Of a DNA stretch of 32,000 bases, positions 9,625 to 31,040 are shown piece by piece. The stretch is from NCBI RefSeq assembly GCF_000179635.2, contig NC_014833.1, forward strand, positions 1,380,001-1,412,000, written 5' to 3'. Made by a program: the position numbers and the translations under genes. Position 1 is the stretch's first letter, and the number at the start of each line of letters is the position of its first letter. The stretch comes from Ruminococcus albus 7 = DSM 20455. Lineage in GTDB: Bacteria; Bacillota; Clostridia; Oscillospirales; Ruminococcaceae. The notes below the pieces were generated by a model. That model was not told the origin of the DNA and did not search any database. It saw only the letters and a program-made list of their open reading frames with translations.

Positions 9625-9757
9625 AACTTTCTCCTGTAATTTTTTCCTGTTTATCCTTACGCTTAAATCAAGACCTGCACCCACGGCAGATCAGCTCTTA
9701 TCATATGTCGCACGATGTTTCGATATTCGCGTATCAGCGACATTATGCCGAGTCTGT

Positions 9758-11037: not shown

Positions 11038-12945
11038 TTATCTCAAATCTTTAATAACCCAGTCGTTACTGAATACGTCCTTACTTTTTTCATAAGTTTC
11101 AGACTGCATTGCTACACAAAGTAATTTTTTGGGTCTGCTCATGCCAACATATGCGAGTTTGCGGCTATAATCAAATAGAGGTGATTTTCCAAGACTTCCA
11201 GCACCAAAATAAGGAAGAATCCTGTTCAAGTCAGTTGAACGTTGTCTGGATGTTTCAAGATAAAGTGTTGCATCATGTGTTTCACCTTTTACTGCGTGAA
11301 TGGTATCAAATACAATCCTTCGACCTCTAATTGGATCAATAAACACATTTTTCTCAGGCCTATCTGCCCGACTTGCAACACTCGATTCATCAAGAAAGAA
11401 ATCTGGAAGTATAGTGAATATATCAGCTATGGTTGGATCGCTGATTCTTAGCAATTCTTTAAGCTTTCGCCGTAACATCCAATCTACGGTTTGTCTATCG
11501 AAGCATTTTAATGTCGACATCTCATAAATCCAAGAGCGATATAAATCTCTATACTGTTCTTCAAGGAACCTTTTTAATGCAACAGTAGTAAATTCTTTGC
11601 CAGATGCTGGATTCACTTTTTTAATATAGTGAAATATACGACATAACAACTTACGAATGATTTGCTCTGCCTTATAAAGCTTGCCGTTCTCTAATACCTG
11701 TGTTAATTCTTCTACTGAAATCCAATAGTTATATTCACTTTTCTTATTAGAACTATCAAATTCTGGAAAATAGCTACCGATTTTAAGTCCAGCAGTACTT
11801 TCGCTTTTTATTGCACCAATTGCCTTGTATACGCCGTTTCTATCATTCAAATTGTGAGCTTCTAATTCAGAAATAAAACTTACAATAACTCGGTCAATAT
11901 TCTCAGGAGAAAAAACAAGTAATACTGGTTTAACTCCTGTTTCTCCAGTAAACGTCACTATACTTTTTTCTTTCTTCTTTAGTTTGCAAATTACATTAGC
12001 AATTTCCTGACTAAATCTGCAAGAGGTCATAATGGGCAAGTAATCATCCTGTGGGATCCAATCAGTTGTTGTATCTTCAGATTGGTTATATATAGCTTGA
12101 TCAGAATCACCAATTTTGAAAATCGCACATTTTGTTGAGTCAAAAATAGCGTTTATAGCTTGCCTTTGAATATCATTACAATCTTGATACTCATCTATGA
12201 AAACGTATTGAAATCGTGATGAAAATATATCTGTATACGATTGGGATAAATCATCAATAGCAGCCTTTGCAAACGAATAGGCATCCTGATACCTTATTAT
12301 CCCTTCGTTTTTTAGAAGATCAACTAATAATTCTGAATATTGCTCTGTGGAAGGCTTTCCTGCACAAGCCAATGCGTTTTTCTGTCGTTCTATACAAAGG
12401 GCACCATCATCTCGTAAATATAAAGCCTGCGTATGACTGATACGATCAGAAAACTGTCTGCCAGTTTGGTAATTATTTTCAGTTAGATAATTCAGTTTGC
12501 TATACTTTCTATTATTCAGCATTTTATTAAGCATATGCTGTGCATAGGTCATACTATCAACCACTTGAACGCTTTGCCCGAAAGTATTGCGTATATAAGG
12601 CATAGTCACAAATCTATCAATAAATGACTGAATCGTCCCAACATAATTAGGATAGCTGAGAATCTTATCTGAATAATCAGAGAGTTTTCTTTTGATTTCA
12701 TTTACAGCAACATTTGTATGGGAAAGCACACAAATTCCAGCACCGTTTTCAAAAGGAATTCTATCAGCTAACAGTTTTAACTTAGCGAGAAGAACGGTAG
12801 TTTTTCCGCTGCCAGGACAGGCGGCTACATCAGTTGAATGCCAACACCGGATGACTTTTCTTGCATCATCTGAAAAATGTGTCTCCTGTGGCAGAAGAAG
12901 TTCTTCAGTTGATTCGATATCCTTATCGGAAATTATCCATTCCAA
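11038..12945 (-). CDS. UvrD/PcrA/Rep-like SF1 helicase, partner of the OLD-family nuclease (GajB-like)
   Basis: 635 aa. TTG start with GGGAGGG RBS 7 nt upstream, 15 nt after the OLD gene stop. Walker A ACPGSGKTT. Motif II VFIDEYQDCN. C-terminal HAVKGETHDA and YVGMSRPKKLL. The gene is AT-rich. Confidence 0.85.
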   Translation of the reverse strand: MEWIISDKDIESTEELLLPQETHFSDDARKVIRCWHSTDVAACPGSGKTTVLLAKLKLLADRIPFENGAGICVLSHTNVAVNEIKRKLSDYSDKILSYPNYVGTIQSFIDRFVTMPYIRNTFGQSVQVVDSMTYAQHMLNKMLNNRKYSKLNYLTENNYQTGRQFSDRISHTQALYLRDDGALCIERQKNALACAGKPSTEQYSELLVDLLKNEGIIRYQDAYSFAKAAIDDLSQSYTDIFSSRFQYVFIDEYQDCNDIQRQAINAIFDSTKCAIFKIGDSDQAIYNQSEDTTTDWIPQDDYLPIMTSCRFSQEIANVICKLKKKEKSIVTFTGETGVKPVLLVFSPENIDRVIVSFISELEAHNLNDRNGVYKAIGAIKSESTAGLKIGSYFPEFDSSNKKSEYNYWISVEELTQVLENGKLYKAEQIIRKLLCRIFHYIKKVNPASGKEFTTVALKRFLEEQYRDLYRSWIYEMSTLKCFDRQTVDWMLRRKLKELLRISDPTIADIFTILPDFFLDESSVASRADRPEKNVFIDPIRGRRIVFDTIHAVKGETHDATLYLETSRQRSTDLNRILPYFGAGSLGKSPLFDYSRKLAYVGMSRPKKLLCVAMQSETYEKSKDVFSNDWVIKDLR

Positions 12946-13674
12946 CGTAGAACCCTCCCTTTATATTTTCTCTCCCGCAGCATACTTGATAGCATTTACA
13001 ATATAGCGCAAATACTGATCTTTTTCAATTTGTGTATTAAGTTCAGCTTTCTTTGCCTCATCTGTTTTGAACCCATATAAGTCGAGGTCAAACATTTTTT
13101 CTTGTGTTACTCCTTCTGGTATTTTAGATGTTCTCCATCTTAACGCCGAAGCCAGACATTGAGCAACTATCGCTTTAAGGCTACTTTTCCCATCACCGTT
13201 AAGCATTAAATCATAAATTCGATATGCACGTTCGGCATCAGATAAACTTTCCCATAGCTGTGCTTCTGTTTCAGCATCTTTATTTGCTTCACCTATTTTT
13301 GCATCAGTCAGTGAAATATACTCTCGAGCATTCAGAATCTTCATGCCATAATGAACTGCCTTATGAAAATCTTTTGAAAGACAGCTCAAAGCAATACAAT
13401 ACTCTAATGTCCATCGAGGTGAAGTGAAGCCACGAACGGCTCCATTTGTGTATTTTTCATTTTTCTTTTCTTGTGCTTCTGTAGATTCTTTCACTTTCTC
13501 ATTAAATGTTTTTTCCTCGGTAGAAGAATCAACATCATATGGCTTTACGTCACAATCTGTTATTACTGAAACAGGTATACCAATATCGTTTCCGTCCTGC
13601 CGAACCATAATCCCACTATATCTAAGAAAAGCTGTGCTTCCAACATTAACAATAGAAATTCCGTATTTTTCTAA

Positions 13675-14780
13675 GGCAACACCGCACAACTTGCGCAGCA
13701 GCCCAAAAAATGATATAATAAAAGTATGAAAAGCAATCTTCAAACCTCACTCTTCGGCGATGCCTTCCAGAGTGCAAAGACCAACAAAAAACAGTTCCTT
13801 GAGAAAATGGATTCTCTGATCCCTTGGCAAGACTGGGTTTCTATAATATCTCCGATTTATTATGAAGGGAAAGTCGGACAGAAGCCATACCCAATCGAGC
13901 TGATGCTCAGGATCCATATTCTCCAGAATTTCTATGACCTCGCAGATATGGCCGTTATGTATGAGATACTCGACAGCCGCTCTTTCTCTGATTTCTGCGG
14001 CGTATCATCTCCCGATGATGTTCCCAACGGCGATACTATCGGCCGATTCAGACAGCTGCTTATCGACAACAATATCCAAGAGCAGATATTCGCGCAGGTC
14101 ATCAGCATCCTGGATAAGAATCATCTCATCCTGAAGAAAGGTACTATCGTCGATTCGACACTTATTGCCGCGCCCTCCTCCACAAAAAATGCTGACAGGC
14201 AGCGCGACCCCGATGCGCATTCTGTCAAGAAAGGCAATCAATGGTATTTCGGATACAAGGCGCATATCGGTGTCGATAAGGACACCGGCCTTGTTCACCA
14301 CGTCAAGGCGACCGCTGCAAATGTACACGATACGGAAGCCGTCGATGACGTGATCGATGGCGATGAAGATGAAATATACGGAGATTCGGGATATCTGAAT
14401 GTTGAGGAGCATATATCGGAGGAAAAGCAAAAAGAGGGGCGGGAGTATCACATCAACCGCCGGCGCGGTGCAAAGAAGAAACTGGAGCCTAATGATCAGT
14501 TGGTTTTTGAGATAGAAGAGTTTGCGAAGTCCACAGTACGTTCAAAGGTCGAGCACGTTTTCGGAGTTGTGAAGCGACTGTTCCGATTCCGACGAACGCG
14601 GTACCGTGGCTTGCGAAAACAACAAGCCAAATTTAATATGATATTCGCGCTGGCGAATCTTTATCTGGCTGACAAGAAAAACTTGCTGGCTTGATAAAGT
14701 GCGCCCTGCGAACAGGATCTTGGGCAGGCATATCTGTTTGGGGTATGTCTTGCTTTAGAGGTCATTTGTGCGGTGTTGCC
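13675..14780 (+). mobile_element. IS5-family insertion sequence (1106 bp)
   Basis: Terminal inverted repeats are GGCAACACCGCACAA (13675-13689) and TTGTGCGGTGTTGCC (14766-14780). They are flanked by the direct 4-bp duplication CTAA (13671-13674 and 14781-14784), which fits the IS5 YTAR target. There is a single transposase ORF. Confidence 0.92.
13726..14694 (+). CDS. IS5-family DDE transposase
   Basis: 322 aa. It aligns along its length with my memory of E. coli IS5 transposase: PYPIELMLRIHILQNFYDL, GTIVDSTLIAAPSSTKN, RDPDAHSVKKGNQWYFGYKAHIGVD, RSKVEHVFGVVKRLF. Confidence 0.92.
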   Translation: MKSNLQTSLFGDAFQSAKTNKKQFLEKMDSLIPWQDWVSIISPIYYEGKVGQKPYPIELMLRIHILQNFYDLADMAVMYEILDSRSFSDFCGVSSPDDVPNGDTIGRFRQLLIDNNIQEQIFAQVISILDKNHLILKKGTIVDSTLIAAPSSTKNADRQRDPDAHSVKKGNQWYFGYKAHIGVDKDTGLVHHVKATAANVHDTEAVDDVIDGDEDEIYGDSGYLNVEEHISEEKQKEGREYHINRRRGAKKKLEPNDQLVFEIEEFAKSTVRSKVEHVFGVVKRLFRFRRTRYRGLRKQQAKFNMIFALANLYLADKKNLLA

Positions 14781-16074
14781 CTAAGGGATATCCAATTATA
14801 TCAGCGATTACAGGAATTAATATGTTTTCCGCATCACCTTCGACCATTATGATACCCTTTGCAAAAAACAGATTGGCTTTTGTTGAATCAAGAAAACGTT
14901 GAAGAAATAGGTAATCACCTTTTTGCAAACCTGTTTTTCCCTCAGCCAAATCGTACCCACAACCGCTTTTCATTAAGATTAAGTTTTTTAAATTGATTTT
15001 TGATGCCAAAATCGGACTGTGTGTAGATATTATAATTTGGACATCATTTTCGTTATACTCGTTCTGAAGATAGTTAATCAACCTAAGTTGCGCTTGCGGG
15101 TGTAAATGAGCTTCCAATTCTTCGATCAGAGCCAGTTTCAATCCACCGTCAGTGTCATCTTTAAGAAGTAATAGTTCTGCTGCAATGAACAACAGATTTA
15201 ATTCTCCTAATCCCGGGTTAATCTCAGGGGCATTCAATGACAGTGATTCCAGGATAGCTTTGAGCTGAATATCGGATGTTTTCAATTCTGCATTGCTTGC
15301 CTGACCTTGATCATTAAAAGACGCTAAGTTGTCTCGAATCGCTTGAAGAATATGTTTTCCATCGGCATCATCAGTAAAATACTCCTCAATTTTTTTGTTT
15401 GCGTCTTGAAAAATGTCAAGAACTGCGTGTTCCTTCTTATCTTTGAAAACGGGATGATTAAGCAGTATTTGCGAAATTCTGGAACCACGTCCAGAACTCA
15501 TTTCGCGTTCTGCATCACGAAGTGGTTTCAAATAAACTGCTTTCAATAACTCTCTTGCTTTTCCGTCAATAGAAATACCATCATCTATATCACCTACGCG
15601 CAATTCTTGATAAATTCTGTGTCCGTCTTTCCATGCACGATAATGAAGTTGAAGTGTATATTCGACCTTATCTCCATCTTTTTTGAAGTTTAAATATTCG
15701 ATGAAGTTTTTGGCTTCATTCTGCGTGAATTCAGAAAGCGTACAATCGATTTTGAATTCAGAACACGCATTTCCATCGGCTGATCTATAAAAATCTTCAT
15801 CTACTGGCTTGATATATTCATTACTTTGCGTTAGCAAAACTAATTTTAACGCATCAATCACAGCCGTTTTTCCGGAATCATTCTCACCAATCAGCGCATT
15901 TAGCCCCTTATGAAAGGTGATTTGCAGACCAGGTGCTCCATCCACGGATTGGAAACGACGAAAATTATACACCTTTAACTCAGATATAATCATTTTTTCA
16001 CGCTCACTTCCGAAAATTTATAAAGTATAGTAATCCTTCTTATGTTTCAAAATTGTGATTAAAAACCTGTTATT

Positions 16075-16103
16075 ATGTTAGCACCTATTTTGAAAAATGT
16101 CAA
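16075..16103 (-). promoter_or_regulatory. Sigma-A-type promoter for the OLD/UvrD operon
   Basis: On the minus strand: TTGACA (16098-16103), 17-nt spacer, TGcTAACAT (-10 at 16075-16080). It sits between the methyltransferase terminator and the OLD ATG at 15993. Confidence 0.5.
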
Positions 16104-16116
16104 TAGCAGTCAAATG

Positions 16117-16155
16117 AAAGGACAGATACTTCCACAAGAGAAGCAGCTGTCCTTT
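16117..16155 (-). terminator. Hairpin terminator after the methyltransferase gene
   Basis: aaaggacag (16117-16125) / ctgtccttt (16147-16155), with inner cttc/gaag pairing. It starts 10 nt after the stop at 16166. The U-tract on the minus strand is only moderate (TTTCATTTG). Confidence 0.45.
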
Positions 16156-16165
16156 TTACGTCATA

Positions 16166-19100
16166 TCAGAATTCCACGACCTGATCAATCTCCGCCATAA
16201 GCTCCTCGGTGAGCCTGAGAGCTGCAATGATCTTCTTGTAATGCTCGATGTCCTCAGCGGAGAGCGTAGTCTTCTTGCGGTCTTTGAGCCACTTCTGCAA
16301 CGGCTGATAGCCGCCTATGTACTGCTCCCACTGTGCCTGCGGAACATTATCGAAATACTGTGTTTTGCTGATGTACACCCTGCCGTTCTTGTATTCGGGC
16401 TTTACGACTTCGTTAGTGCCGTCACCGACAAAGCTGTAAGCTGCGGTATCGAACTCGGTCTGCATCAGGTGGCATTTTCTCAGCTTGCCGCCAATCTCTA
16501 CCAGTTTCCAGAAGGTTTCCTGATCTGTCGGATACGGTACACGAGGAAAGTCGATTTTCAGGAACTCCTTGTATTTATCACGATATTTCGGAGAGTAAAG
16601 AACCGCATAGATATAGTCGAACAGTTGTAAAGCCATTCCGTCGGAATAAATAATTTCAATAGGTTTCAATAATTGACGAGCTAACTCTTCATTAATATTG
16701 ATTGTACTGCGACCATATTCTGGGTAATATAAATACAAAGGAAGCACAGTACCTCCACCTCTCCGATAAATATTCTGATCACTTATAATATTAGAAACAA
16801 AAACAGTGTCCCAATAATTTAGATTTGCAGCCCCTCCTTGTCTACATATTATTAAACTATAGTTATTCTTATTATTTATATGAGAAAACACTTTTGTATT
16901 CGGACGAGCTAAGACGTTATCATAATATAATATTTTACGAAAATCAAACGGACGGTAAAGGATTTCAGATATATAATCTTTTACATCACATTTTTGTAAA
17001 GACATACGTGCTGATAATGCATTCCATTTATCATTGTCTTTTATTGGTATCCCGAAATAATTGCAGACTGAATTTAACTCATTATCAGGATCAGCAAAAT
17101 ATTTGATTTTTTCAATTAATTCGTTTTCGGTATAATCTACAACAAGAGAATCTCTTTTAGTAAGAACGCCCAATGTGCCTAAAACGAACAAATCTCTAAC
17201 TGATACCCCATCAGAATACTTTTTCTGTATTGGATTATCCATATAGAAGAAAGGATAGTTTGGTGCTACAATAGGAGTCAAGTTCCATTTGATTTCAGCT
17301 AAGGCGGAACTATTTAACATTGTATATTTATCTTGTCTGCTTCCATAATAATCATAGTATCTTATAATTGGTTCTTTATAACTATTAGAATACGATTTCA
17401 CTAAAATTAGAATTGAAACGCCTTGTTGAATATCAAAAACATTCTCATCTTTACTTCCGTCTGGAGCTACCTCCTTTTTTTTGGCATTGCCATGTAAATT
17501 CAAAACAAATAGTTTGTTATATGTTTGCAATAGATTCCATCGCATTCCTCGGAAAGTTGGATTATCGATATATCCGTGCGGACATATATATGCCATTATT
17601 CCGTATCCTGACTTTTCTATAAACAGCTGAGCATATCTTAAAAATTTTACATAATCATCATTAATCCACTTATAGTTTTGTTCTTGTAGTTTTATTCTTC
17701 CGCCAGGCTCTTTCTTGTAATCTTCCATTAAATCCATTATCCATTTGCCTTTATTGGCACTTTCTCCGGAATACGGCGGATTACCAATAATCACATTAAT
17801 TCCGTTATTCTTCTTCGCCTGATTCGCCTCAATGGACTCAAACGCCAGCGGATCATTGTCAAACAGCGTCATCTGAAAATCGTCCTTGCCTGCTTCTTCC
17901 AGCGAATTGGTCAGGAACACATTCAGTCGGTGATCGCCGCCGAAATCATAGCCTGTATCTTTCAGCACCATAGCGAGCTTCATGTGAGCTACGGCATAGG
18001 GAGCCATCATCAGCTCAAAGCCATTCAGACGGGGCAGCAGGTGCTTCGGGACATACTCATTCCATGCCTTTCTGATCTGCTCCTCGCTCTCGCCCTTGTG
18101 CTTGGCTCTGAAATTATCATATATTTGCAGAATGGTCTGACGCAGGAATGTTCCCGTTCCTGTTGCGGGATCGAGTATCTGAACAGCAGGTACTTCCTTT
18201 GTGTCCTCGGTCATGCCCTGACCTCTGATCTTTTCACGCATATACTTCACAGTCTTGGTTTCTTCCGATGCCAGACCGTCCGCAAGCCCGAACTCCGTTT
18301 TCAGAATACTGTCAACTGCTCTGACAATGAAATTGACAACAGGCTGTGGCGTATAGTAAACACCCCTCTGCACCTTCTGTGCCTTGTCATATGCGGTCAG
18401 GAATTCCTCATAGAAATGAATAACAGGGTCTTCACGGCCGCCGCCCGTCTGACGGTTGAAATCGGCAAGTATCAGGTCGGTGTTCGTGTGCGTGAGTATT
18501 TCAACAACATTCGCAACTTCCAGTTCGTCAAAGGTCAGGTGACGCTCACTGCCCTCGCCCAGACATTCCTCCATGAGCCTTTTCAGGAACGGGTTGGTGT
18601 TCGGAATGCAGGCGATCGCTTCTTTCACATTGAAGCTATCCTGCGTCTTGTCCATGCATCTTGCCGAGAATAAGCCGTAAACAACGGTCTGAGCGTACAT
18701 ATCTGCAAACTGCTGCTTTGTCATATCGTGAATAAGGTTATCCTTAAAATCCTTGAACAGCTTATGCACATATCCGTCATGCGTTTCAACAGCATATATG
18801 TCGAGAATACGGTCACGGATAGCCTGAGCCTCAGCCGCCAGCTTGACCGTAAGCGAAGCAGAGTCCCTGATAACCTGATGATATGCCGTTACAAATGCCG
18901 CCGACCACTGATCGTACCATGCCTGTGTGTCAGTAACATCTTTCACCCATGACAGGTGACTAATACGTTCCTCAAAAGTGCGTATCTGTGTGAAGTCCTC
19001 AACCGCAGGCGCACAGGAGATCATTTTTATTTGCGGAAGTCCTGCATCCTTATCCTCAAAATGTGCGATACCGATGGTTCGGTTATTATCCGTCCCCCAG

Positions 19101-19447
19101 AAACAAAGGAACAGAAGGTCTTTCTGCGACCATACAGCGTGTTCAGCGGCATTTCTTCTCTTGGGGATAAGTCCTGACAGTATCTTGCGGAGTGCTGACA
19201 CTTCAAACTTGTTGCTGTCGAACTCTACGCAGAAGATGCCCCATTTCTGCTCATCGCAGAGTGGCTGTAACTGCCGTAATGATGAAATCTTAGCAAATGC
19301 CTCTTCTTTCAGTCCGATGTCCGATGCATCGAAATCGTATGTAATATCGTCGATCTCATCAAAATCATCAAGGTCGATGTTCCAGTTCAGTTCCTCGGTA
19401 AAGTATATGATAAGATCATCTATGCTCTTTATATTTCTGATATCCAT
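16166..19447 (-). CDS. Large gamma-class N6-adenine DNA methyltransferase with Type ISP / MmeI-like C-terminal specificity region
   Basis: 1093 aa. AAGGGG RBS. Motif I ILDPATGTGTFL. Motif IV VIIGNPPYSG. The C-terminal QWEQYIGGYQPLQKWLKDRKKTTLSAEDIEHYKKII matches my memory of the Type ISP C-terminal domain. There is no helicase or obvious nuclease domain in this polypeptide. Confidence 0.85.
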   Translation of the reverse strand: MDIRNIKSIDDLIIYFTEELNWNIDLDDFDEIDDITYDFDASDIGLKEEAFAKISSLRQLQPLCDEQKWGIFCVEFDSNKFEVSALRKILSGLIPKRRNAAEHAVWSQKDLLFLCFWGTDNNRTIGIAHFEDKDAGLPQIKMISCAPAVEDFTQIRTFEERISHLSWVKDVTDTQAWYDQWSAAFVTAYHQVIRDSASLTVKLAAEAQAIRDRILDIYAVETHDGYVHKLFKDFKDNLIHDMTKQQFADMYAQTVVYGLFSARCMDKTQDSFNVKEAIACIPNTNPFLKRLMEECLGEGSERHLTFDELEVANVVEILTHTNTDLILADFNRQTGGGREDPVIHFYEEFLTAYDKAQKVQRGVYYTPQPVVNFIVRAVDSILKTEFGLADGLASEETKTVKYMREKIRGQGMTEDTKEVPAVQILDPATGTGTFLRQTILQIYDNFRAKHKGESEEQIRKAWNEYVPKHLLPRLNGFELMMAPYAVAHMKLAMVLKDTGYDFGGDHRLNVFLTNSLEEAGKDDFQMTLFDNDPLAFESIEANQAKKNNGINVIIGNPPYSGESANKGKWIMDLMEDYKKEPGGRIKLQEQNYKWINDDYVKFLRYAQLFIEKSGYGIMAYICPHGYIDNPTFRGMRWNLLQTYNKLFVLNLHGNAKKKEVAPDGSKDENVFDIQQGVSILILVKSYSNSYKEPIIRYYDYYGSRQDKYTMLNSSALAEIKWNLTPIVAPNYPFFYMDNPIQKKYSDGVSVRDLFVLGTLGVLTKRDSLVVDYTENELIEKIKYFADPDNELNSVCNYFGIPIKDNDKWNALSARMSLQKCDVKDYISEILYRPFDFRKILYYDNVLARPNTKVFSHINNKNNYSLIICRQGGAANLNYWDTVFVSNIISDQNIYRRGGGTVLPLYLYYPEYGRSTININEELARQLLKPIEIIYSDGMALQLFDYIYAVLYSPKYRDKYKEFLKIDFPRVPYPTDQETFWKLVEIGGKLRKCHLMQTEFDTAAYSFVGDGTNEVVKPEYKNGRVYISKTQYFDNVPQAQWEQYIGGYQPLQKWLKDRKKTTLSAEDIEHYKKIIAALRLTEELMAEIDQVVEF

Positions 19448-19457
19448 AATGTACCCC

Positions 19458-22400
19458 TTATATCATCTGAAGCCATGTGACCAACTTGGCTTTTTTGCCC
19501 ATAGGTGCCTGTATCGCTTTCAGATAATTCTTCTTGATGTAGTTTTCTATGACCTTGCGTATCTCGGAGAACTGCCCCTCATTAGCGTTAAAGGCTCTGC
19601 TCTCGTCACGTTCACATTTTATTGCAGTCCATATCTCATGCAGATCTTCTGTGACCTGCTTGCTTTCCGGATCAACAACATACCAACGGTAAATACCATC
19701 GCCGTCCGACCATGAGCCGTCAGCTCTCTTGGTAGGCAGTTCATAGCAGAAGAAGTATCCCTTCCGTGTTGACGCCATTTTACCGCTGTACATCTTTCTT
19801 GGCAGCTCCTTGACCTGTTCAAGATAGTCGGGATTATCTGCTAAGAGCTGCTGATATGCAAGGGCAATTTCTTCCTCTGCGGAAGTACTGCCCTCATAAT
19901 GTGAATTGAATTCTTTCAGTGCTTCGTATTCGTCATCAGGAGTGAGGAGCTTTTCTCCCTCAATGCCGAATGTCTTGGAAATACGGAGCGTTTTCTTTGA
20001 TACGGTCTTATACAGTGACAAAAGATCTTCCAATTCCTTTGGCGGCAGGAAGTTCCAATAATACGCAAAATCACGATCTGCTTTCAGTTCTGGGTGATCT
20101 GCAAGCAGATGGGCTTCGGTATCGGCATCACGGCGTCGGTCTATACGACCTATTCTCTGCATAAGGCGAACAGGGTTCCAGTGAAGCTCATAATTAATAA
20201 GGCACGATGCGTCCTGCAAGTTCAAGCCTTCTGCAAGTACATCTGTTGCGATAAGTATCTTTATCTCGTCCGTTACTTCCGCCGACGAACATCCGTTATA
20301 ATAAGGAGCGAAACGCTGTATCATCTCATGGCGGTCACCGGAAGTCTGCCCGTCGATCTCATAAAGATCGGTAAAACCTGCCTTTTGCAGTTCACGATAG
20401 ATATACTGCGCTGTCGCCTTGTATTCCGTGAAAATGATAACTTTCTTGTTCTGAATGCGTGAATCTTCGTGCAGGATATGCTTTAATTTCCGTATCTTAT
20501 CGTCGTTTTCGGGCTTGAACTCCATCATATCTTCGATGAACTTAGAAAGTGTGTCCATATCCATCATGGTATCAACAAGCAGAGCATTGATATCGAAATC
20601 ATTGACATCAAAGACTTCCTGTGTATTCCACACATAATCGGGCAGGCTGTCCTCAATATCTTCGATAGAGGTCTGATTCAAAGCTGCATATTCCTCGGCG
20701 TACCGTAGAATATCTTCTTGTTCAGCCTGTTTTCTCTCAACACGTCGCTTACTGCTCGCATCAGTATCCTTGTAGTCGTTGAGGAATTTGTTCAGACGGA
20801 TATATATTTTGATACAAGTCTCCTTGAATGCTTCGATAGAACTTTCAAAGCGTTTCAGGAGCAAGATGCGGATAAGATTTACTACCTGCTGTTGACGACC
20901 TGTTACCATTTCGTCCATCTTGGACTTGTCCCCGATGAAATAATCATCGCTGTACGGCGAATAAATGGCAAGGGACAGGATCGTTATCGTTTTTCCGTTC
21001 TTGTCCTTGCGGTCAAAAGACTCCTTGAAGTCCTTTATCAGTCTGCCGTATGACTTTTCGAGGGAGTAGTTCGCAACTGTCGGCGGTTTTCTCTCGGAGA
21101 AAAGGACATTATTACCTTGCTCAGTCAGCAGACTCCGCTTAACGTAGGCACGACTGCGCTGTACAACAAGCTCCGTCACAAGTTTGTCTGCGCGGATAAT
21201 ATCACCGGATATATCAAAAGAATCGCTGATGGCTGTACCCGAAACCTGATCAAGCTGCTTCTCCATTTTTTTGAAATGACCTGAAAGACTATGGATACCC
21301 AACGGAGCAGCGGAGAAATAATCTTCCTGCCTATGAGTGAACAACTCAATAAGATGCTGTAAATCAAGGAAACTGTTATTGATCGGTGTGGCTGTCAGCA
21401 TAAACATCTGCTTTTTACAGCCTGTCTGCATCATATCAAACAGCTTTCTGTATCTGTTGGAGGAACGGTTGCGGAAATGATGTGCTTCATCTATGATAAT
21501 AATTTCCGCCTGCTGTGCGATCTGATTCATTAGATTCTGATTTTTATCAAGCAGCAGGTCGGTATGATTGATGATCTTGAACGGGTAGAAGCCCTCTAAT
21601 ATCTCAGGGATAAGGCGTTTTATAGTTACTTCCCATACGGATACCCTTGCAGATGCAGGAACGATCAGTACGACATTTTTACGCTCCTTCTTTACGAAAC
21701 GCTCTATCAGCATCATGCCGACAAAGGTCTTGCCCAAACCTACACCATCACAAAGAAAAGCACCTGAATAACGCTCTGCTATCTGGATAAGGCTGTTATA
21801 GCCGTCCTTCTGATACTGCGACAAGCCTTTGTATACGACCGATTCGTTTTCTTCCCATTCAGATACTGTTTCCTCATGGCTCTTGAAATACTCATACATT
21901 GAGCGTAGATAAACATCATAAGGACTGAACTCACGGCAGTGCATCTCCATGACCTTTAACACAGCCTCGGTAATATCCGTGCCGTTCTGCCAATGCTCAT
22001 CAAACCACTTCTGAAGCTGTTCAACTTCATCTTTTACCTGAACATTCAGCTCGATATTCTGCGTCAGTCCCGCCTTTGTAAAGTTGCTTGATCCGACCAG
22101 GGCATATCCCGAAGGAACATTCATAGCGGAGATAAACTGATCTCTGTATTCGTCACGGAAATATGTGATATATGCTTTAGCGTGAAATTTATTGCTGTCA
22201 TATACACGGCACTCGATCTTGCCGGACTTCATAGCCTTTATGATAGCCGGAACGCCAATAAGGAATTCATTCTTTTCCTGCTCACGCTCCATACTGTTAC
22301 GGAAACGCTCAATCATAGTCTGTGCTACTTCTTCTATGACATCTTTGGTGCGCTTAGTTACTTCGTTGCCGAGGATAATGCGTATCTTGTCGAGCTTCTG

Positions 22401-22553
22401 CCAATCTTCCCCTAAAGTGAGCAGACCGCCGATCTCGAAGTATCCTGTTGCAATATCCATCTGCTTGGAAATCGAACACCATTCGGAAAGATAATTCTTT
22501 ACAGAAGCCTTTTCGCTGCTGTTGTCAACTATATATAAAGTATCGTGTGCCAT
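19458..22553 (-). CDS. HKD (phospholipase-D family) nuclease domain fused to an SNF2-family SF2 ATPase/translocase
   Basis: I prefer the ATG at 22553 (MAHDTLYIVDNS...), which has an AGGGGGA RBS; the track start is 22613. HKD motif FHAKAYITYF...LVGSSNFTKAGL. SNF2 motifs DGVGLGKTF (I), IIIDEAHHFRN (II), MLTATPINNS (III), LIATDVLAEGLNLQ (V), WNPVRLMQRIGRIDR (VI). The stop is 10 nt before the methyltransferase ATG. Confidence 0.88.
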   Translation of the reverse strand: MAHDTLYIVDNSSEKASVKNYLSEWCSISKQMDIATGYFEIGGLLTLGEDWQKLDKIRIILGNEVTKRTKDVIEEVAQTMIERFRNSMEREQEKNEFLIGVPAIIKAMKSGKIECRVYDSNKFHAKAYITYFRDEYRDQFISAMNVPSGYALVGSSNFTKAGLTQNIELNVQVKDEVEQLQKWFDEHWQNGTDITEAVLKVMEMHCREFSPYDVYLRSMYEYFKSHEETVSEWEENESVVYKGLSQYQKDGYNSLIQIAERYSGAFLCDGVGLGKTFVGMMLIERFVKKERKNVVLIVPASARVSVWEVTIKRLIPEILEGFYPFKIINHTDLLLDKNQNLMNQIAQQAEIIIIDEAHHFRNRSSNRYRKLFDMMQTGCKKQMFMLTATPINNSFLDLQHLIELFTHRQEDYFSAAPLGIHSLSGHFKKMEKQLDQVSGTAISDSFDISGDIIRADKLVTELVVQRSRAYVKRSLLTEQGNNVLFSERKPPTVANYSLEKSYGRLIKDFKESFDRKDKNGKTITILSLAIYSPYSDDYFIGDKSKMDEMVTGRQQQVVNLIRILLLKRFESSIEAFKETCIKIYIRLNKFLNDYKDTDASSKRRVERKQAEQEDILRYAEEYAALNQTSIEDIEDSLPDYVWNTQEVFDVNDFDINALLVDTMMDMDTLSKFIEDMMEFKPENDDKIRKLKHILHEDSRIQNKKVIIFTEYKATAQYIYRELQKAGFTDLYEIDGQTSGDRHEMIQRFAPYYNGCSSAEVTDEIKILIATDVLAEGLNLQDASCLINYELHWNPVRLMQRIGRIDRRRDADTEAHLLADHPELKADRDFAYYWNFLPPKELEDLLSLYKTVSKKTLRISKTFGIEGEKLLTPDDEYEALKEFNSHYEGSTSAEEEIALAYQQLLADNPDYLEQVKELPRKMYSGKMASTRKGYFFCYELPTKRADGSWSDGDGIYRWYVVDPESKQVTEDLHEIWTAIKCERDESRAFNANEGQFSEIRKVIENYIKKNYLKAIQAPMGKKAKLVTWLQMI

Positions 22554-22744
22554 TGCAATCCCCCTGACTATTGCATAATTCATAAAAGGGATCATAATGC
22601 TTTCAGACTGCATACCTGATAAATGCGGTGTTATACTATGTAAAGTATCTGGGGAGAGAGTAGGTTTCTTGAAATAGATACTTTTACGAAATCCGCATAT
22701 TTTAACAGGTATTTGCTTTGAAAGACATAATATCCCATAATGAA

Positions 22745-22773
22745 ATTATACAAGATTTTCCGTAAAATTTCAA
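22745..22773 (-). promoter_or_regulatory. Sigma-A-type promoter for the PLD-SNF2 / methyltransferase operon
   Basis: On the minus strand: TTGAAA (22768-22773), 17-nt spacer, TATAAT (22745-22750). It lies about 190 nt upstream of the ATG at 22553. Confidence 0.55.
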
Positions 22774-22861
22774 GTATCAGGCTGAAAATCGGCGGTTTGT
22801 ATACAAGAGGACTGACTCAGATGTGCAGATTGCTATTCTGAGGGCATTGGAGGGCTACTGA

Positions 22862-23950
22862 ATGGAGAAAACAGGTATAACTATTACAAAGCGTAAAGAT
22901 GGACGGTATGTCGGGAAGTTCATCGCTGAATACGCCGATAACGGCAAAGCGCAGTATCACTATGTCTACGGCAAGACCTATGAAGAAGCCGAAAACAAGG
23001 TGATGATAGGGCGAGAAATTACCACACGCTATCTTTCGGGCAGATATATCAAAGTCGGCAAGGTGTATCGGGAATGGCTGAATGCCGTGGTGAACCGTGT
23101 CAAGGAATCTACGCTTGCCAACTACCGGAACAAGTTTGAAAAGCACATTCTCCTCGAATTCGGAGATATACCCTGTGCCGACCTGACCGCAGGCAGGATA
23201 AACGCATTTATAAACAAAAAGCTCGCAGACGGATTATCTGCAAGCTATGTGAGGGATATATTTACTGTTTTCAAAACGATGCTGAAATATGCACAGGAGG
23301 AATATGGGTTCAGGCTTTCCCTGAAAAATGTCGTTCTTCCTAAAGCCGAAAGAAATCAGGTCGAGAAGATCAGCGATGCAGAGCAGAAAAAGCTCGTTTC
23401 ATATCTGAAAGCCAATATGTCGCTGACTGCTTTCGGTATCCTGCTGTCGCTTTTTATGGGACTGCGTATCGGTGAGCTTTGCGGGCTGAAATGGGAAGAT
23501 GTGGACTTTCGGAACAAGATACTGCATATCCGCAGGACTGTTCAGCGTATCAGTTCTGCCAACGGCAACAGGAAGACAAAGATCGTGATCTCAGCACCGA
23601 AGTCGGCAACATCGTTCAGAGAGATTGCTATCCCCGATATGCTCATGGAATATTTTGAAATGTTCCGTGATGAAGCCGATCATTTCATCTTATCGGGTAC
23701 AGACAAGCCTGTTGAACCCCGCACAATGCAGTACCGCTACAAGAAGATACTGCATACTGCTGATGTGGAAGATCACAACTATCACAAGCTCCGCCACACA
23801 TTTGCGACCAATTCCGCAGAGAAGGGATTCAACGTCAAAGCCCTGTCCGCCGTTCTCGGTCACAGCAGTGTCCCCCTGACACTTAACCGATATATCCACC
23901 CTGACCGCACCTATGAACGCAGGCTGATGAATATGTGTATGCAGTTGTAA
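22862..23950 (+). CDS. Tyrosine site-specific recombinase / integrase
   Basis: 362 aa. GGAGGG RBS 7 nt upstream. Arm-binding-type N-terminus (ITKRKDGRYVGKF). Catalytic-region motifs RIGELCGLKWEDVDF, HKLRHTFAT and LGHSSVPLTLNRYIH. Confidence 0.9.
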   Translation: MEKTGITITKRKDGRYVGKFIAEYADNGKAQYHYVYGKTYEEAENKVMIGREITTRYLSGRYIKVGKVYREWLNAVVNRVKESTLANYRNKFEKHILLEFGDIPCADLTAGRINAFINKKLADGLSASYVRDIFTVFKTMLKYAQEEYGFRLSLKNVVLPKAERNQVEKISDAEQKKLVSYLKANMSLTAFGILLSLFMGLRIGELCGLKWEDVDFRNKILHIRRTVQRISSANGNRKTKIVISAPKSATSFREIAIPDMLMEYFEMFRDEADHFILSGTDKPVEPRTMQYRYKKILHTADVEDHNYHKLRHTFATNSAEKGFNVKALSAVLGHSSVPLTLNRYIHPDRTYERRLMNMCMQL

Positions 23951-24215: not shown

Positions 24216-24545
24216 TCAGAAAAGCTGTCCTGAATCAACGTCTACCTTGACTGCAAATCTATTCTGGAAGTGTAGTTCCTCTACGATAATAACTGCGGTA
24301 TTATCAGGAGCCTTCCTGAGCGAGCCTACAAAGGTTATCTGCCCACCTTTTGAGTAGAGAAAACTTACTGATTTAGCGTTGTCATCAAATGCAAGACAGG
24401 TAAACGTGTCTGTCTCAACGGTATCAATGCCATTTCGTTTCGGCTGGTCAACAGCAATACTGAATTTGCAGTAGCTGCAATCCTCCACAGTTACAACGTC
24501 CAAATCGGTGGTGATGCGTCCTGTCATCATGATCTTGTTTAACAT
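24216..24545 (-). CDS. Divergent SSB-like OB-fold protein
   Basis: 109 aa. AAAGGAG RBS. The pattern MLNKIMMTGRITTD..., FSIAVD, TDTFTCLAFDDNAKSV..YSKGGQITFVGSL and VEELHF parallels bacterial SSB N-terminal OB folds. There is no acidic C-terminal tail. Confidence 0.5.
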   Translation of the reverse strand: MLNKIMMTGRITTDLDVVTVEDCSYCKFSIAVDQPKRNGIDTVETDTFTCLAFDDNAKSVSFLYSKGGQITFVGSLRKAPDNTAVIIVEELHFQNRFAVKVDVDSGQLF

Positions 24546-24908: not shown

Positions 24909-26309
24909 TTATTCAAGGTCATTTCGCTTGCGCTTTTTCTGCTGGTCACGGCTCCGTTCCTGACGGAGATACTGTTCGATCTCTCTTGCCGCCTCGGATA
25001 ACTCTCTTGCCTTCTGATCGACGGCTTTGTATTCTGCATTCTTCTGTACCCGTTGTGCAGTCAGATCAGCGATCATCTTCTCGAATTTCTCCACAGAAGG
25101 AGTAGTCCCATCGGGATACCATTCCAGTATTTTTTGTGTAAGCATATAATGCTCGGCAAGTGATTCACTATGTTCATTTTTATACTTTTCTTTTTTACGT
25201 CCGTTGAGCGCCATATATTCCTGATGTATCGGTTTCACCTCACGGTATTTGCGGAGCGTTTCTGCACGTTCTTCAAGCGACTTGATCTCACCTGAAATGT
25301 GGTTAAGATCCTGCACAAGTGCTACCCTTTTACTGAAAGCTGAAATGCCGGAAGTCTTGGCTTCATCAACCGTTACGCCGTACTTGGCAAGAATGTTCAG
25401 TGCCTTGCTTGTGATCTTCATATTCTCACGGTCAATGGCATCACGGATAAACTTGTTTTCTTCAGCCTTCGGGGAAATAACTCTAACTTTAGTTTTCGGA
25501 GTATAAAGCATTATGCCATTGTACTGTGCGATACGGGCTTTTATCTGCTCAGTCTCATAATACCAGCCCAGTGTTTTCGCCCTTGTGAATTTTGCACGGG
25601 AATTATTCTCTTTCTGCTCTGCAAGCATATATTTCAGGTCGATTTTATGGTCAGGATTATAATCGACAAGTATGCCGTACTCAGCGCATTTCAGAAGGAA
25701 ATCATCAAAATCTTTGCTGACCTTTACTACCTGATCTATGGCATATTTCAGCTTGGCTTTCCATGACAGACCTTGACGGGACATATCCCATTCCCAATGG
25801 CTCTTGCCTTTGCTCTGTTCGGGGTTCTGAATGATGGACAGATTGTTCTCACTGCATAGCTCGTCCGAGATGCGCCGAAGCTCTGCCCAGGCACGGTCTT
25901 TCTTATTGCCTTGATTATGCTCAGTTTCAAACGTTTTGCCCGTGATCATGTTCGTATTATTTACGATTATATGTGCGTGGATATGCTCATGATCTTCGTG
26001 TACGGCAATGACATATTGATACTGCTCTTGCAACAGTCTATGGCATAGTTCTTCTGCAATCTCCATAGCTTTTTCAGGAGTGACTTCTCCGGGAGAAAAG
26101 CTCTGAATTATGTGCTGTGCTTGGGTGGTGCTTCGTCCTGTTCCAAACCGTTGTCGGACAGCTCGGAATTGTTCGGCTGCTCGGACTGGTTCTGTCTCGC
26201 ACATAAAAGACTGGACAAGTGCATGACCTCTGGTCTTATTCCCGTCCACGATGTATTCAAGGCTGTCGCACACTGAACTCCTGATTGAATGTAGTTTAGT
26301 AACTGCCAA
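24909..26309 (-). CDS. Relaxase / mobilisation nuclease (MobA/VirD2-type domain)
   Basis: 466 aa with a TTG start. N-terminal LEYIVDGNKT (candidate Tyr region). Histidine triad HEDHEHIHAHIIVNN. Long helical C-terminal half. Confidence 0.88.
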   Translation of the reverse strand: MAVTKLHSIRSSVCDSLEYIVDGNKTRGHALVQSFMCETEPVRAAEQFRAVRQRFGTGRSTTQAQHIIQSFSPGEVTPEKAMEIAEELCHRLLQEQYQYVIAVHEDHEHIHAHIIVNNTNMITGKTFETEHNQGNKKDRAWAELRRISDELCSENNLSIIQNPEQSKGKSHWEWDMSRQGLSWKAKLKYAIDQVVKVSKDFDDFLLKCAEYGILVDYNPDHKIDLKYMLAEQKENNSRAKFTRAKTLGWYYETEQIKARIAQYNGIMLYTPKTKVRVISPKAEENKFIRDAIDRENMKITSKALNILAKYGVTVDEAKTSGISAFSKRVALVQDLNHISGEIKSLEERAETLRKYREVKPIHQEYMALNGRKKEKYKNEHSESLAEHYMLTQKILEWYPDGTTPSVEKFEKMIADLTAQRVQKNAEYKAVDQKARELSEAAREIEQYLRQERSRDQQKKRKRNDLE

Positions 26310-26758
26310 ATCTCGTTCACGCTCGCTTTCATTGTTGTAATATCTTCGCTGTAAGCACGTCCTGTTCCGTTCACTCTGCGGGCTACCTGATTCACATTCG
26401 CAGCAAGCCCACGAACTGCACCGACGATGTTCTTCATATCGTCCTGATCTATCATCAGAACATAGTGTGCTTTGGTGCAGTCACGGACATAGCTGGACTT
26501 TCTCATTTTAAGCAAATCAGCCTGCTTGCAGATATGCTCCCACTCCGTATCATTGAAGCGAATATTAAGAGTATGATTACGGCACTGATCCCGTCCGTCG
26601 ATATATTCCTGTTCGTCTGCTGTGAGATTATCGAGAGTGACCTTTTCAAGCACTCCGTCAAGCTCCTCTTTCAAACCATCACGAGTATAGTTCAGAGTAA
26701 GTTCCGCGCTGTCCTTGTGACCGTAATCACGCTTGTAGATTTTCTCTGCCTTTGTCAT
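26108..26758 (-). CDS. MobC-like relaxosome accessory protein with an unusually long C-terminal extension
   Basis: ATG at 26758 with AAAGGAAG RBS. The MobC signature is RKSSYVRDC...LAANVNQVARRVNGTG. The ORF only stops at 26108, about 200 nt inside the relaxase gene in another frame. Confidence 0.75.
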   Translation of the reverse strand: MTKAEKIYKRDYGHKDSAELTLNYTRDGLKEELDGVLEKVTLDNLTADEQEYIDGRDQCRNHTLNIRFNDTEWEHICKQADLLKMRKSSYVRDCTKAHYVLMIDQDDMKNIVGAVRGLAANVNQVARRVNGTGRAYSEDITTMKASVNEIWQLLNYIQSGVQCATALNTSWTGIRPEVMHLSSLLCARQNQSEQPNNSELSDNGLEQDEAPPKHST

Positions 26759-27260: not shown

Positions 27261-27336
27261 TAATATGTAAGAAAAGGTATGTTCTTACTTATAAACGTTT
27301 CGCATTTTGGAGGAAGATAATATTTCGGAGGACTAT

Positions 27337-28389
27337 ATGGCTCTTATTGATACTTATAGAACAAATGTTGCAAAGAAAAGAGAGCAGTTTTCCAAACTGT
27401 TTTCAGAGAAAGCTAAGGAAAATGAAAAAATAGCTGCAGCAAGAACTAAAATTGAACGTGCCAGCGATGCTATAAGAAAAACAAATAGTTCAGCTACCAT
27501 TAAATCTAAAACCAATGATATAACCAGGGCTGAAAAAGACATCACAACGTCTGAGAAGAAAATTGCCGTTCTTGAAAAACAGATTGCAAAGCTTGAGAAG
27601 GAAATAGCTGATGAACAAAAGAAAGTTGAACGTGAAGAAAAGAAGATTCATGATCAACGGATTAAAGAGGAAGCCGAAATGCAGAAAAAAACACAACACC
27701 AGATTTTAGAGTTAAATAAAACAATTCAGCGTCATGCTGACATACATTCTAATTTGCAGAATCAAATAGATGAATTACAGAAATTACCTAAAACAATTAC
27801 TGTATTATTTTTAGCATCAAATCCCGTAGATACTCCTTCGCTACGGTTAGATGCTGAATGTCGAGCAATACAAGAAATGATTAGGAAGTCTGAATATAGG
27901 GACACAATAAAATTTGAATCAAGGTGGGCTGTACGAACTTCTGATCTTCTACAGGCTATAAATGAAGTTAATCCTGATATTATTCATTTTAGTGGTCATG
28001 GAGATGACGATGGTACGTTAGCATTTGAGAATCCTGACGGAGAATGTAAATTAGTTACAAAAGAAGCTATGGCACAAACTATTATGACACTTTCCGATAA
28101 GGTGCGTCTGATTTTCTTTAATGCTTGCTTTTCAGCTATTCAAGCGGAGAATATCGTAAAGTATGTAGATATAGCCATTGGAATGAACACTTCTATAGGC
28201 GATGAAGCGGCACTCGTATTTGCCTCTCAGTTTTATTCTTCTATAGGATTTGGTAAGAGTATAGAAGTATCTTTTAATCAAGCCAAAGCTGCTTTAATGT
28301 TAGAGGGTATTCCTGAAGAAACAACACCCGAATTGTTTGTTCGAGATGGATTGCAAGCTAACAGTATTATTTTAGTTCAACCAGAATAA
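27337..28389 (+). CDS. Coiled-coil - CHAT (caspase-like Cys protease) domain protein
   Basis: I prefer the ATG at 27337 (GGAGGA RBS 5 nt upstream) over the track TTG at 27307. The first 150 aa or so are Lys/Glu-rich coiled coil. The C-terminal half has the CHAT signature LFLASNP...LRLDAECRAIQ...PDIIHFSGHGDDDG...LIFFNACFS...AIGMNTSIGDEAALVFASQFY. The candidate dyad is His221 (27997-27999) and Cys264 (28126-28128). Confidence 0.8.
   Translation: MALIDTYRTNVAKKREQFSKLFSEKAKENEKIAAARTKIERASDAIRKTNSSATIKSKTNDITRAEKDITTSEKKIAVLEKQIAKLEKEIADEQKKVEREEKKIHDQRIKEEAEMQKKTQHQILELNKTIQRHADIHSNLQNQIDELQKLPKTITVLFLASNPVDTPSLRLDAECRAIQEMIRKSEYRDTIKFESRWAVRTSDLLQAINEVNPDIIHFSGHGDDDGTLAFENPDGECKLVTKEAMAQTIMTLSDKVRLIFFNACFSAIQAENIVKYVDIAIGMNTSIGDEAALVFASQFYSSIGFGKSIEVSFNQAKAALMLEGIPEETTPELFVRDGLQANSIILVQPE

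Positions 28390-29353: not shown

Positions 29354-31040
<1,687 letters not shown>

Follow-up and report, generated by a model that had tools for sequence, protein, structure and literature searches.

A PLD-SNF2 helicase and a Type ISP-like methyltransferase encoded side by side in Ruminococcus albus 7 probably form a split ATP-dependent restriction-modification system

In a 32,000-nucleotide stretch of the Ruminococcus albus 7 genome (NC_014833.1, positions 1,380,001 to 1,412,000; hereafter the window, to whose first letter all coordinates refer), two adjacent minus-strand genes are predicted to encode a two-subunit ATP-dependent restriction-modification system, a split Type ISP or Type IIG-like arrangement armed with a PLD nuclease. 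From sequence comparison we give this reading a probability of roughly 0.7. Gene 1 (19458..22553, 1031 residues) is the predicted restriction subunit, in which a PLD (HKD) nuclease is fused to an SNF2-type translocase. Gene 2 (16166..19447, 1093 residues) is the predicted modification and specificity subunit and consists, in this order, of an N-terminal domain (N-domain), a helical region, a gamma-class N6-adenine methyltransferase and a target-recognition domain. An earlier note on this DNA had proposed a two-polypeptide ATP-dependent restriction system, and the proposal is supported by the pairing of the two genes (38/38 and 4/4 loci, see below), the lack of a third conserved gene in these loci, a cassette-swapped recognition domain and the conserved PLD and ATPase motifs. 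The note had, on the other hand, rated the novelty of the pair too highly: the architecture is already known and named in REBASE and in Blow et al. 2016 (AchA6III, type 'IIG*'), and methylation has been demonstrated in that one distant relative. What our analysis adds is a candidate portable docking domain and the mislabelling of the family by current annotation models.

Using Pfam, we detected PLDc_2 (1.3e-10), SNF2-rel_dom (1e-14) and Helicase_C (1.9e-20) in gene 1, together with ResIII and a weak match to RE_NgoFVII. The single HKD/PLD nuclease domain (residues 30-188 of the 1031-residue form, which all residue numbers of gene 1 follow; 21990..22466) carries the motif FHAKAY, with H124-x-K126, and G154-S-S-N157. 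The N-terminal lobe of the SNF2/ResIII ATPase (21318..21824) contains the Walker A motif GLGKT at 272 and DEAH at 355; a TATP motif is found at 387, and the Helicase_C lobe (20124..20498) holds motifs V and VI, the latter as QRIGRIDR at 799. The motor is SNF2-like, with DrmD/RapA-like affinities. The C-terminal region (residues 811-1031; 19461..20123) has no Pfam match and is still alignable in homologues down to 25% identity, and the Pfam scan of gene 1 revealed no recognisable DNA-reader domain. In an alignment of 54 family members that are 25-64% identical to gene 1, G154 and S155 of the PLD motif are invariant and H124, K126, S156 and N157 are conserved in at least 90% of the sequences. 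Equally invariant are the ATPase residues G272, G274, K275, D355, E356 and H358 and the motif VI residues Q799, R800, G802, R803 and R806. Since the catalytic residues are kept in these relatives, both the nuclease and the motor of gene 1 appear to be under selection. The top PADLOC match of gene 1 is the model 'C3a139 HKD+Snf2' (1.1e-58), and its family is large (1450 clusters at 50% identity, E<=1e-30). A search of phage genomes with gene 1 returned two weak records only, thus the system is not typically phage-borne.

The Pfam family Type_ISP_C matches gene 2 over profile positions 1-341 of 342 (5.3e-69), in agreement with the earlier note, which had likened the tail to Type ISP C-terminal domains; N6_Mtase and Eco57I also match, and MmeI_Mtase reaches 22 bits, under its 27-bit cut-off. 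Among PDB sequences, the best matches are DrdV (7lo5, 2.2e-34), LlaBIII (1.5e-28, residues 422-998 of gene 2) and LlaGI (7e-24, residues 422-1057). An all-helical region (residues 166-340; 18428..18952), recognised from the secondary structure of an AlphaFold2 model, lies ahead of the methyltransferase catalytic domain (residues 341-680; 17408..18427). In this domain motif I (DPATGTG, 426) precedes motif IV (NPPY, 556), which together with a C-terminal recognition domain is the gamma-class layout. The remainder is formed by a hypervariable target-recognition core (residues 681-960; 16568..17407) and the conserved C-terminal part of Type_ISP_C (residues 961-1093; 16169..16567), with IGGYQPLQKWLKDR at about residue 1044. 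These domain E-values, and two intact open reading frames (ORFs) of more than 1000 codons each, are far beyond chance. We found no papers on Type_ISP_C (PF18135).

Conservation along gene 2 is uneven. Across 114 full-length homologues, identity is 65-90% over residues 1-680 and 63-76% at the C-terminus, and it is 24-43% over residues 681-960. The pattern is sharpest in a locus (L004) of a Ruminococcus metagenome-assembled genome from buffalo omasum. The helicase of this locus is 98% identical to gene 1, and its methyltransferase is 96-100% identical to gene 2 over residues 1-550 and 951-1093, with identity of 22-30% over residues 701-900. Judged from this alignment, the allele is a clean replacement of the recognition-domain cassette.

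We gathered 80 loci with a gene 1 profile from contigs of one genome per species and then searched them for gene 2. The helicase clade (at least 35% identity to gene 1) comprises 48 loci; 38 of these have at least 1.3 kb of flank and are informative, and the other ten, without a partner, end at a contig edge. The neighbourhood check named in the earlier note came out in favour of the pair: a same-strand methyltransferase with the N-domain is present in 38/38 informative loci, directly downstream of the helicase in 37 and upstream in one, and the gap between the two genes is mostly -25 to +36 nt. Reciprocally, a PLD-SNF2 gene lies directly upstream in 4/4 gene 2 homologues on long contigs, and two further loci reached via gene 1 show the same pairing. 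The pair occurs in at least 15 phyla. Its hosts include Bacillota, Actinomycetota, Chloroflexota, Acidobacteriota, Planctomycetota, Verrucomicrobiota and Myxococcota as well as Alpha-, Beta- and Deltaproteobacteria, Omnitrophota, Armatimonadota and Poribacteria. Clustering all ORFs of the 38 loci yielded no third conserved gene, and no fusion of gene 1 and gene 2 is present among 150 representatives or the 240 homologues listed. In relatives the pair is found alone on small plasmids and mobile elements, and it is abundant in gut and rumen metagenomes.

In eight loci the helicase and methyltransferase genes are separated by 450-960 nt. The possibility that these gaps encode a conserved third component was rejected, since the cassettes inserted there (Fic, toxin-antitoxin, DUF3800 and others) are unrelated. 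Those of L007, L009, L019, L032, L036, L045 and L079 encode a Fic-like protein, BrnT-, MazF- and VapC-like toxin-antitoxin pairs, a DUF3800 protein and a four-helix-bundle protein, and such cassettes seem to insert preferentially at the operon junction. More distant PLD-SNF2 relatives (~25% identity), for example on Lactococcus lactis pUL021B (L085) and E. coli p1919D62-2 (L086), sit in another conserved cluster on Lactococcus, Enterococcus and E. coli plasmids. It consists, in this order, of a helicase-related protein, a DUF4391 protein, a site-specific DNA methyltransferase and a DEAD/DEAH helicase, and the Lactococcus version is preceded by a small helix-turn-helix regulator.

The first 165 residues of gene 2 (18953..19447) form the N-domain, for which we propose the role of a docking module for the PLD-SNF2 partner. 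It is 77-88% identical among close homologues and has no Pfam family. The AlphaFold2 model is an alpha/beta fold (predicted local distance difference test score, pLDDT, 83.7; predicted TM score 0.81), for which Foldseek found no significant match in PDB or BFVD (best E 0.02, TM <= 0.34). Similarly, a model of residues 1-345 (pLDDT 72) gave nothing under E 0.38 against PDB with Foldseek, and a profile of the N-terminal 345 residues gave chance-level matches only (E >= 0.45) against PDB sequences. Across diverse partners, only W22, R98, F113 and F130 are invariant. In the partnered proteins, neither catalytic residues nor any acidic residue or lysine are conserved in the N-domain, and a conserved D/E/K triad is lacking.

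Within this domain the earlier note had pointed to a D-x9-E-x-D string (D65, E75 and D77) and had offered two explanations, a decayed nuclease or a coupling domain. The first of these is not supported. In close relatives D77 is replaced by E, S, A or N and E75 by N; in a wider comparison D77 is also K or G, E75 is replaced by K, R or D, and D65 is not conserved. For comparison with genuine nuclease domains we used plasmid-borne, stand-alone relatives of gene 2, such as a 1058-residue Pseudomonas aeruginosa plasmid protein that is 39% identical over gene 2 residues 185-1088. The helical region of gene 2 aligns with these proteins from residue 185 on, and their N-termini carry a textbook PD..ExK motif (GAPDF...GHLEAK, GAPDFIIKNGNLVIGHLEAKD). 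No helicase neighbour is present at the stand-alone loci examined (P. aeruginosa, Roseinatronobacter, Acinetobacter, Agrobacterium and Borreliella). Comparing the N-domain with the PD..ExK domain of these relatives using hhalign showed no relationship (probability 0.3%), and a decayed PD-(D/E)XK nuclease was rejected. A coupling domain is the explanation that we favour.

Six loci of the clade (L009, L028, L032, L033, L060 and L079) have an Eco57I/MmeI-type methyltransferase as partner, with DUF7008 in L032 and L079 and a Schlafen domain in L009 and L060. In all six, the partner still begins with the N-domain, which in this comparison travels with the helicase and not with the methyltransferase backbone. 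Because it follows the helicase and occupies the position that the nuclease has in the stand-alone enzymes, the N-domain probably docks or licenses the PLD-SNF2 subunit. A weaker hhalign signal (77.7%, E 1.9e-5) links the N-domain to the N-terminal ends of the methyltransferase partners of more distant PLD-SNF2 helicases; it is no more than suggestive of a remote version of the domain there. A protein search with the N-domain profile returned short contig-end fragments only and is therefore uninformative on fused forms. We tentatively go one step further, at slightly less than even odds: the N-domain (~150 residues) would be a portable adaptor fold that replaces the PD..ExK nuclease and plugs unrelated methyltransferase chassis into one PLD-SNF2 clade, and the pair would be a loader-independent, minimal two-protein type of ATP-dependent restriction. 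We found no paper describing the gene 1/gene 2 family or the N-domain.

Two further loci show unusual forms. In a Poribacteria locus (L046), the N-domain is a free-standing 188-residue ORF directly after the helicase (13055-13621), a second fragment lies upstream (7719-8075), and a methyltransferase is absent. Either the locus has decayed or the N-domain exists here as a protein of its own. The plasmid pANSO36D of Nostoc cf. commune SO-36 (L097, 3374-6679) encodes an 1101-residue 'type ISP restriction/modification enzyme' whose N-terminus lacks PD..ExK and whose surrounding 4 kb contain no helicase gene. The strain encodes a PLD-SNF2 homologue on a different plasmid (NZ_AP025733.1, hit H31), and the two may be partners in trans.

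We propose that the pair would work as follows. The C-terminal recognition domain of the gene 2 protein would read a short asymmetric site, at which the gamma-class methyltransferase would set N6-methyladenine (m6A) on one strand and so mark host DNA as self. The gene 1 protein, as restriction subunit, would contribute one HKD half-site and an SNF2-type translocase for double-stranded DNA. At an unmethylated site, the bound gene 2 protein would recruit or license the gene 1 protein via its non-catalytic N-domain, and ATP hydrolysis would power translocation away from the site. As a PLD active site takes two HKD halves, cleavage would need two gene 1 protomers, either permanently dimeric, as MtsD and SauUSI are, or brought together when two motors started at head-to-head sites run into each other, as happens with Type ISP and Type III enzymes. 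If two such motors had to meet, hemimethylated host DNA just after replication would also be spared. The translocation and two-HKD cleavage steps are taken by analogy from MtsD/SauUSI and Type ISP/III. New specificities would arise via recombinational replacement of the recognition-domain cassette, and the pair rides as cargo on what looks like an integrative mobilisable element, beside a Gabija system.

Several points weigh against a restriction-modification system of this kind. Methylation and restriction by the pair are read from sequence comparison, and a physical interaction of the two proteins from their co-occurrence and the distribution of their domains. Head-to-head site dependence is an analogy with Type ISP, Type III and MANTIS, and the SNF2 motor could be either a long-range translocator or a switch. 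The analogous cluster dnmA-yeeB-yeeC of Bacillus subtilis gave no restriction of phage or plasmid (PMC9973331). In MANTIS, methyltransferase loading takes two further proteins, so the autonomy of a two-gene system is not guaranteed.

The B. subtilis result is also the first argument for the alternative that survives best, which we consider unlikely though clearly stronger than the others: that no classical cleavage occurs. The methyltransferase would then serve an epigenetic or regulatory purpose alongside a remodeller-like partner, as a relic of the kind proposed for B. subtilis DnmA, or the pair would perform a BREX-like exclusion that does not kill through the PLD domain. In BREX, a related methyltransferase is at work and cleavage is unproven, and the nuclease activity of MtsD, the effector of MANTIS, has not yet been measured in vitro. 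MtsD is a dimeric PLD and superfamily 2 (SF2) effector with one shared PLD site, in which H122A and K260A lose restriction (bioRxiv 10.64898/2026.09.23.753747), and the in vivo defect of the PLD mutant counts against this alternative. In the gene 1 family, the HKD catalytic residues are kept throughout. Diversification of the recognition domain and exchange of its cassette are an arms-race signature and not that of a housekeeping regulator, and the pair is found on mobile elements beside Gabija, GmrSD and toxin-antitoxin modules.

Returning to a joint restriction-modification system, its second competitor is that the genes are independent neighbours, gene 2 being a self-contained Type IIG/IIL enzyme and gene 1 an autonomous SauUSI-like or Type IV-like PLD-helicase nuclease. 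The REBASE-derived PADLOC model REase_MTase_IIG matches gene 2 very strongly (7e-229), the closest solved structure by sequence is the single-chain DrdV, SauUSI is reported to be a PLD-helicase that can act alone (PMC7913695), and defence genes tend to group in islands. However, the IIG model is matched from residue 165 only (residues 165-1090, model positions 130-1075) and its nuclease-bearing part is left unmatched by gene 2, where the N-domain has neither conserved catalytic residues nor homology to PD..ExK. The true stand-alone relatives lack a helicase neighbour, whereas the two genes adjoin in every informative clade locus, with junctions that overlap or span 4-36 nt in at least 15 phyla, and gene 1 has no recognisable reader of its own. 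We regard this explanation as quite improbable.

Least plausible of all is that the pair is a fragment of a larger system, class 1 DISARM or MANTIS (BREX-related type 2), whose other genes are elsewhere or lost: gene 1 does show partial DrmD matches and shares the domain plan of MtsD, and class 1 DISARM likewise joins SNF2, PLD and an adenine methyltransferase, yet the scores of gene 1 lie far under the NCBIfam cut-offs (DrmD 150 against 610, DrmC 17 against 133), gene 2 and the neighbouring genes have no DrmMI, DrmA or DrmB match, the window contains no DUF499 or DUF3780, the 38 loci share no third gene family, MtsC is alpha-class and gene 2 gamma-class, and relatives carry the pair alone on small plasmids and mobile elements.

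The signals around the two genes fit a single operon-like unit on the minus strand, and the promoter, the coupled junction, the hairpin and the motifs of both genes reported in the earlier note are all present. A sigma-70-like promoter (22745..22773; TTGAAA 22773-22768, 17-nt spacer, TATAAT 22750-22745) has the top sigma-70-like score within 15900-23000, with 11/12 positions matching. The mechanical ORFs run head to tail (19458..22613 and 16166..19447). For gene 1, 22553 (Met21) rather than 22613 is most likely the true start, because the closest homologues (120/120, ~1031 residues) begin at the equivalent of Met21 and because ATG 22553 is preceded by AGGGGG and 6 nt, the geometry of the gene 2 start. 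The 5' leader between promoter and probable start (22554..22744) is then ~190 nt long and includes 60 nt that the mechanical call assigns to gene 1. At the gene junction (19448..19463), the TAA of gene 1 (19460-19458) is followed by the 10-nt spacer GGGGTACATT and the ATG of gene 2 at 19447, and AAGGGG overlapping the stop codon is the ribosome-binding site of gene 2. Downstream of gene 2, a stem-loop (16117..16155, minus strand) with a UUUCAUUU tail is a candidate intrinsic terminator. Direct folding gave a 16-bp interrupted stem of -20.3 kcal/mol (z = -3.1 against shuffles), and a simple terminator scanner did not list it.

A divergent tyrosine integrase (22862-23950) flanks the pair on one side and a Gabija system on the other. 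On the far side of the integrase we identified a mobile backbone consisting of a single-stranded DNA-binding protein (24216-24545), a MobA/VirD2 relaxase (24909-26309), NikA/MobC (26108-26758) and a large serine recombinase (29360-31021). The G+C content is 0.35-0.39 over 11-18 kb compared with 0.45-0.51 in the left flank, and the region looks like an integrative mobilisable element with defence cargo. The closest genome match is a Ruminococcus sp. metagenome-assembled genome, and sister elements keep the order integrase, pair, Gabija with an intact gajA.

The Gabija system is located directly downstream of the pair (11038-15993, minus strand). Its gajB is intact (11038-12945). The gajA gene is interrupted by an IS5-family element (~13672-14783), which leaves an N-terminal part at 14755-15993 and a C-terminal TOPRIM part at 12961-13743; the element encodes a DDE_Tnp_1/DUF772 transposase (13726-14694, plus strand) and is bounded by 18-nt inverted repeats (13672-13689 and 14766-14783). 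In the sister elements L087, L091 and L092, the intact gajA encodes 640-644 residues. A 360-residue protein (27307-28389, plus strand), which combines a coiled coil at its N-terminus with a CHAT protease domain at its C-terminus, weakly matches the PADLOC candidate PDC-S66 (4.9e-13) and may be another defence gene of the island. In the higher-GC left flank, a 781-residue Ser/Thr kinase with an SH3 domain (2346-4691, minus strand; PADLOC mad6 2.9e-47, PD-T4-6 1.4e-33) and an ABC-F type ATPase (7687-9684, minus strand; PADLOC mad3) are probably generic domain matches and not defence genes. Between them, a sodium:neurotransmitter symporter of the SNF family (5514-6928, minus strand) is divided into two ORFs (6215-6928 and 5514-6212) that cover positions 1-111 and 265-481 of the profile; this is probably a pseudogene or the result of a frameshift.

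These results bear on how such genes are annotated. In defence-annotation tools gene 2 appears as a 'Type IIG' enzyme complete on a single chain, and gene 1 receives no assignment. As the nuclease of this family would be encoded by the neighbouring gene, counts of and assumptions about 'Type IIG' systems in gut and rumen genomes are probably wrong in part. A two-protein system in which a reader/methylase is paired with a PLD motor nuclease would offer the simplest model at hand for two questions: how a hemimethylating methyltransferase bound at its site licenses a separate translocating nuclease, and why additional loader ATPases are required in MANTIS and BREX-related systems. Both the recognition-domain cassettes and the putative docking N-domain offer handles for specificity engineering and interaction studies. 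The advance is incremental because the architecture had already been noted (Morgan 2009; Blow 2016).

We finally compared the pair with known systems. Class 1 DISARM likewise has an SNF2 helicase (DrmD), a PLD protein (DrmC) and an N6-adenine methyltransferase, and gene 1 is partially similar to DrmD (PADLOC 7.8e-39; NCBIfam 6.7e-44, 150.5 bits against a cut-off of 610). Gene 1 reaches 16.8 bits with NCBIfam DrmC (cut-off 133) and 148 with the NCBIfam PLD anti-phage model (cut-off 1100). In contrast to DISARM, the PLD domain of gene 1 is fused to the SNF2 motor and no DrmA or DrmB lies beside the pair: as the earlier note had stated, neither was found among the window ORFs scanned, and neither is conserved in the 38 loci. 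Gene 2 has no match to the PADLOC model DrmMI. The label 'DISARM-related' in that note is therefore weak, and a DISARM fragment was rejected on these scores, the missing DrmMI match and the lack of a third conserved gene.

In MANTIS (Gao_RL, BREX-related type 2; MtsABCD), MtsD likewise joins an HKD/PLD nuclease at its N-terminus to an SF2 helicase-like ATPase, and specificity likewise comes from a hemimethylating adenine methyltransferase. Unlike the pair, MANTIS requires MtsA (a DUF499 AAA+ ATPase) and MtsB (DUF3780), and its MtsC is alpha-class with a central recognition domain, while gene 2 is gamma-class. Neither DUF499 nor DUF3780 was detected among the window ORFs scanned or in the conserved gene set of the 38 related loci, and with the methyltransferase class and the absence of a third conserved gene this led us to reject a MANTIS fragment as well.

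With the Type ISP enzymes LlaGI and LlaBIII the pair shares the gamma-class m6A methyltransferase, a homologous recognition domain and the set of nuclease, SF2 motor, methyltransferase and recognition domain. Recognition domains are also swapped between near-identical backbones in both, as is reported for LlaGI and LlaBIII (PMC3553950). Type ISP enzymes are single chains with an Mrr-type PD-(D/E)XK nuclease, whereas the pair is divided into two polypeptides in all 38 related loci, uses a PLD/HKD nuclease and an SNF2-like motor and has the extra N-domain. The Type IIL/IIG enzymes (DrdV, Borrelia plasmid enzymes and plasmid 'type ISP' proteins) have a homologous methyltransferase with a single C-terminal recognition domain; they differ by an N-terminal PD..ExK and no helicase neighbour, where gene 2 has a non-catalytic N-domain and an obligatory PLD-SNF2 neighbour.

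Split arrangements have been described before. Morgan et al. 2009 (PMC2731913) noted MmeI homologues without PD..ExK that are flanked by a helicase, and speculated that their N-terminal domain docks a helicase/nuclease. DnmA-YeeB-YeeC and OspHL35III similarly combine a methyltransferase/recognition protein without a nuclease motif with a helicase alongside. These are three-gene systems, unlike the pair, in which the methyltransferase comes first and belongs to a different (MmeI-like) family and the nuclease is a separate GIY-YIG/T5orf172 protein.

The closest precedent is AchA6III, for which Blow et al. 2016 (PLoS Genet, S4 Fig B; PMC4752239) reported an MmeI-like methyltransferase adjoining a fused PLD endonuclease/translocase, with m6A on one strand of AGCCAG and 89% of sites methylated in vivo (type 'IIG*'). 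Its locus on plasmid pACHL02 encodes a helicase that is a homologue of gene 1 (23.7% identity, E 3e-54) and likewise combines PLDc_2, SNF2 and Helicase_C. The gene order is also the same, with the AchA6III genes overlapping, and gene 2 is likewise a methyltransferase/recognition protein without PD..ExK beside a fused PLD endonuclease/translocase. The AchA6III methyltransferase, however, belongs to the MmeI family (MmeI_hel, MmeI_Mtase and MmeI_TRD, 1e-18 to 1e-78) and gene 2 to the Type_ISP_C/DrdV-like family; the two have no BLASTP similarity at 1e-3, and the AchA6III protein has no match to the N-domain hidden Markov model. The helicases also fall into clades apart, with at least 35% identity within and 23-29% between them. 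The gene 1/gene 2 family is thus a widespread variant, of moderate novelty, of a noted but biochemically uncharacterised split Type IIG/ISP-like class, and by these comparisons it differs from AchA6III in both its methyltransferase/recognition lineage and its helicase clade.

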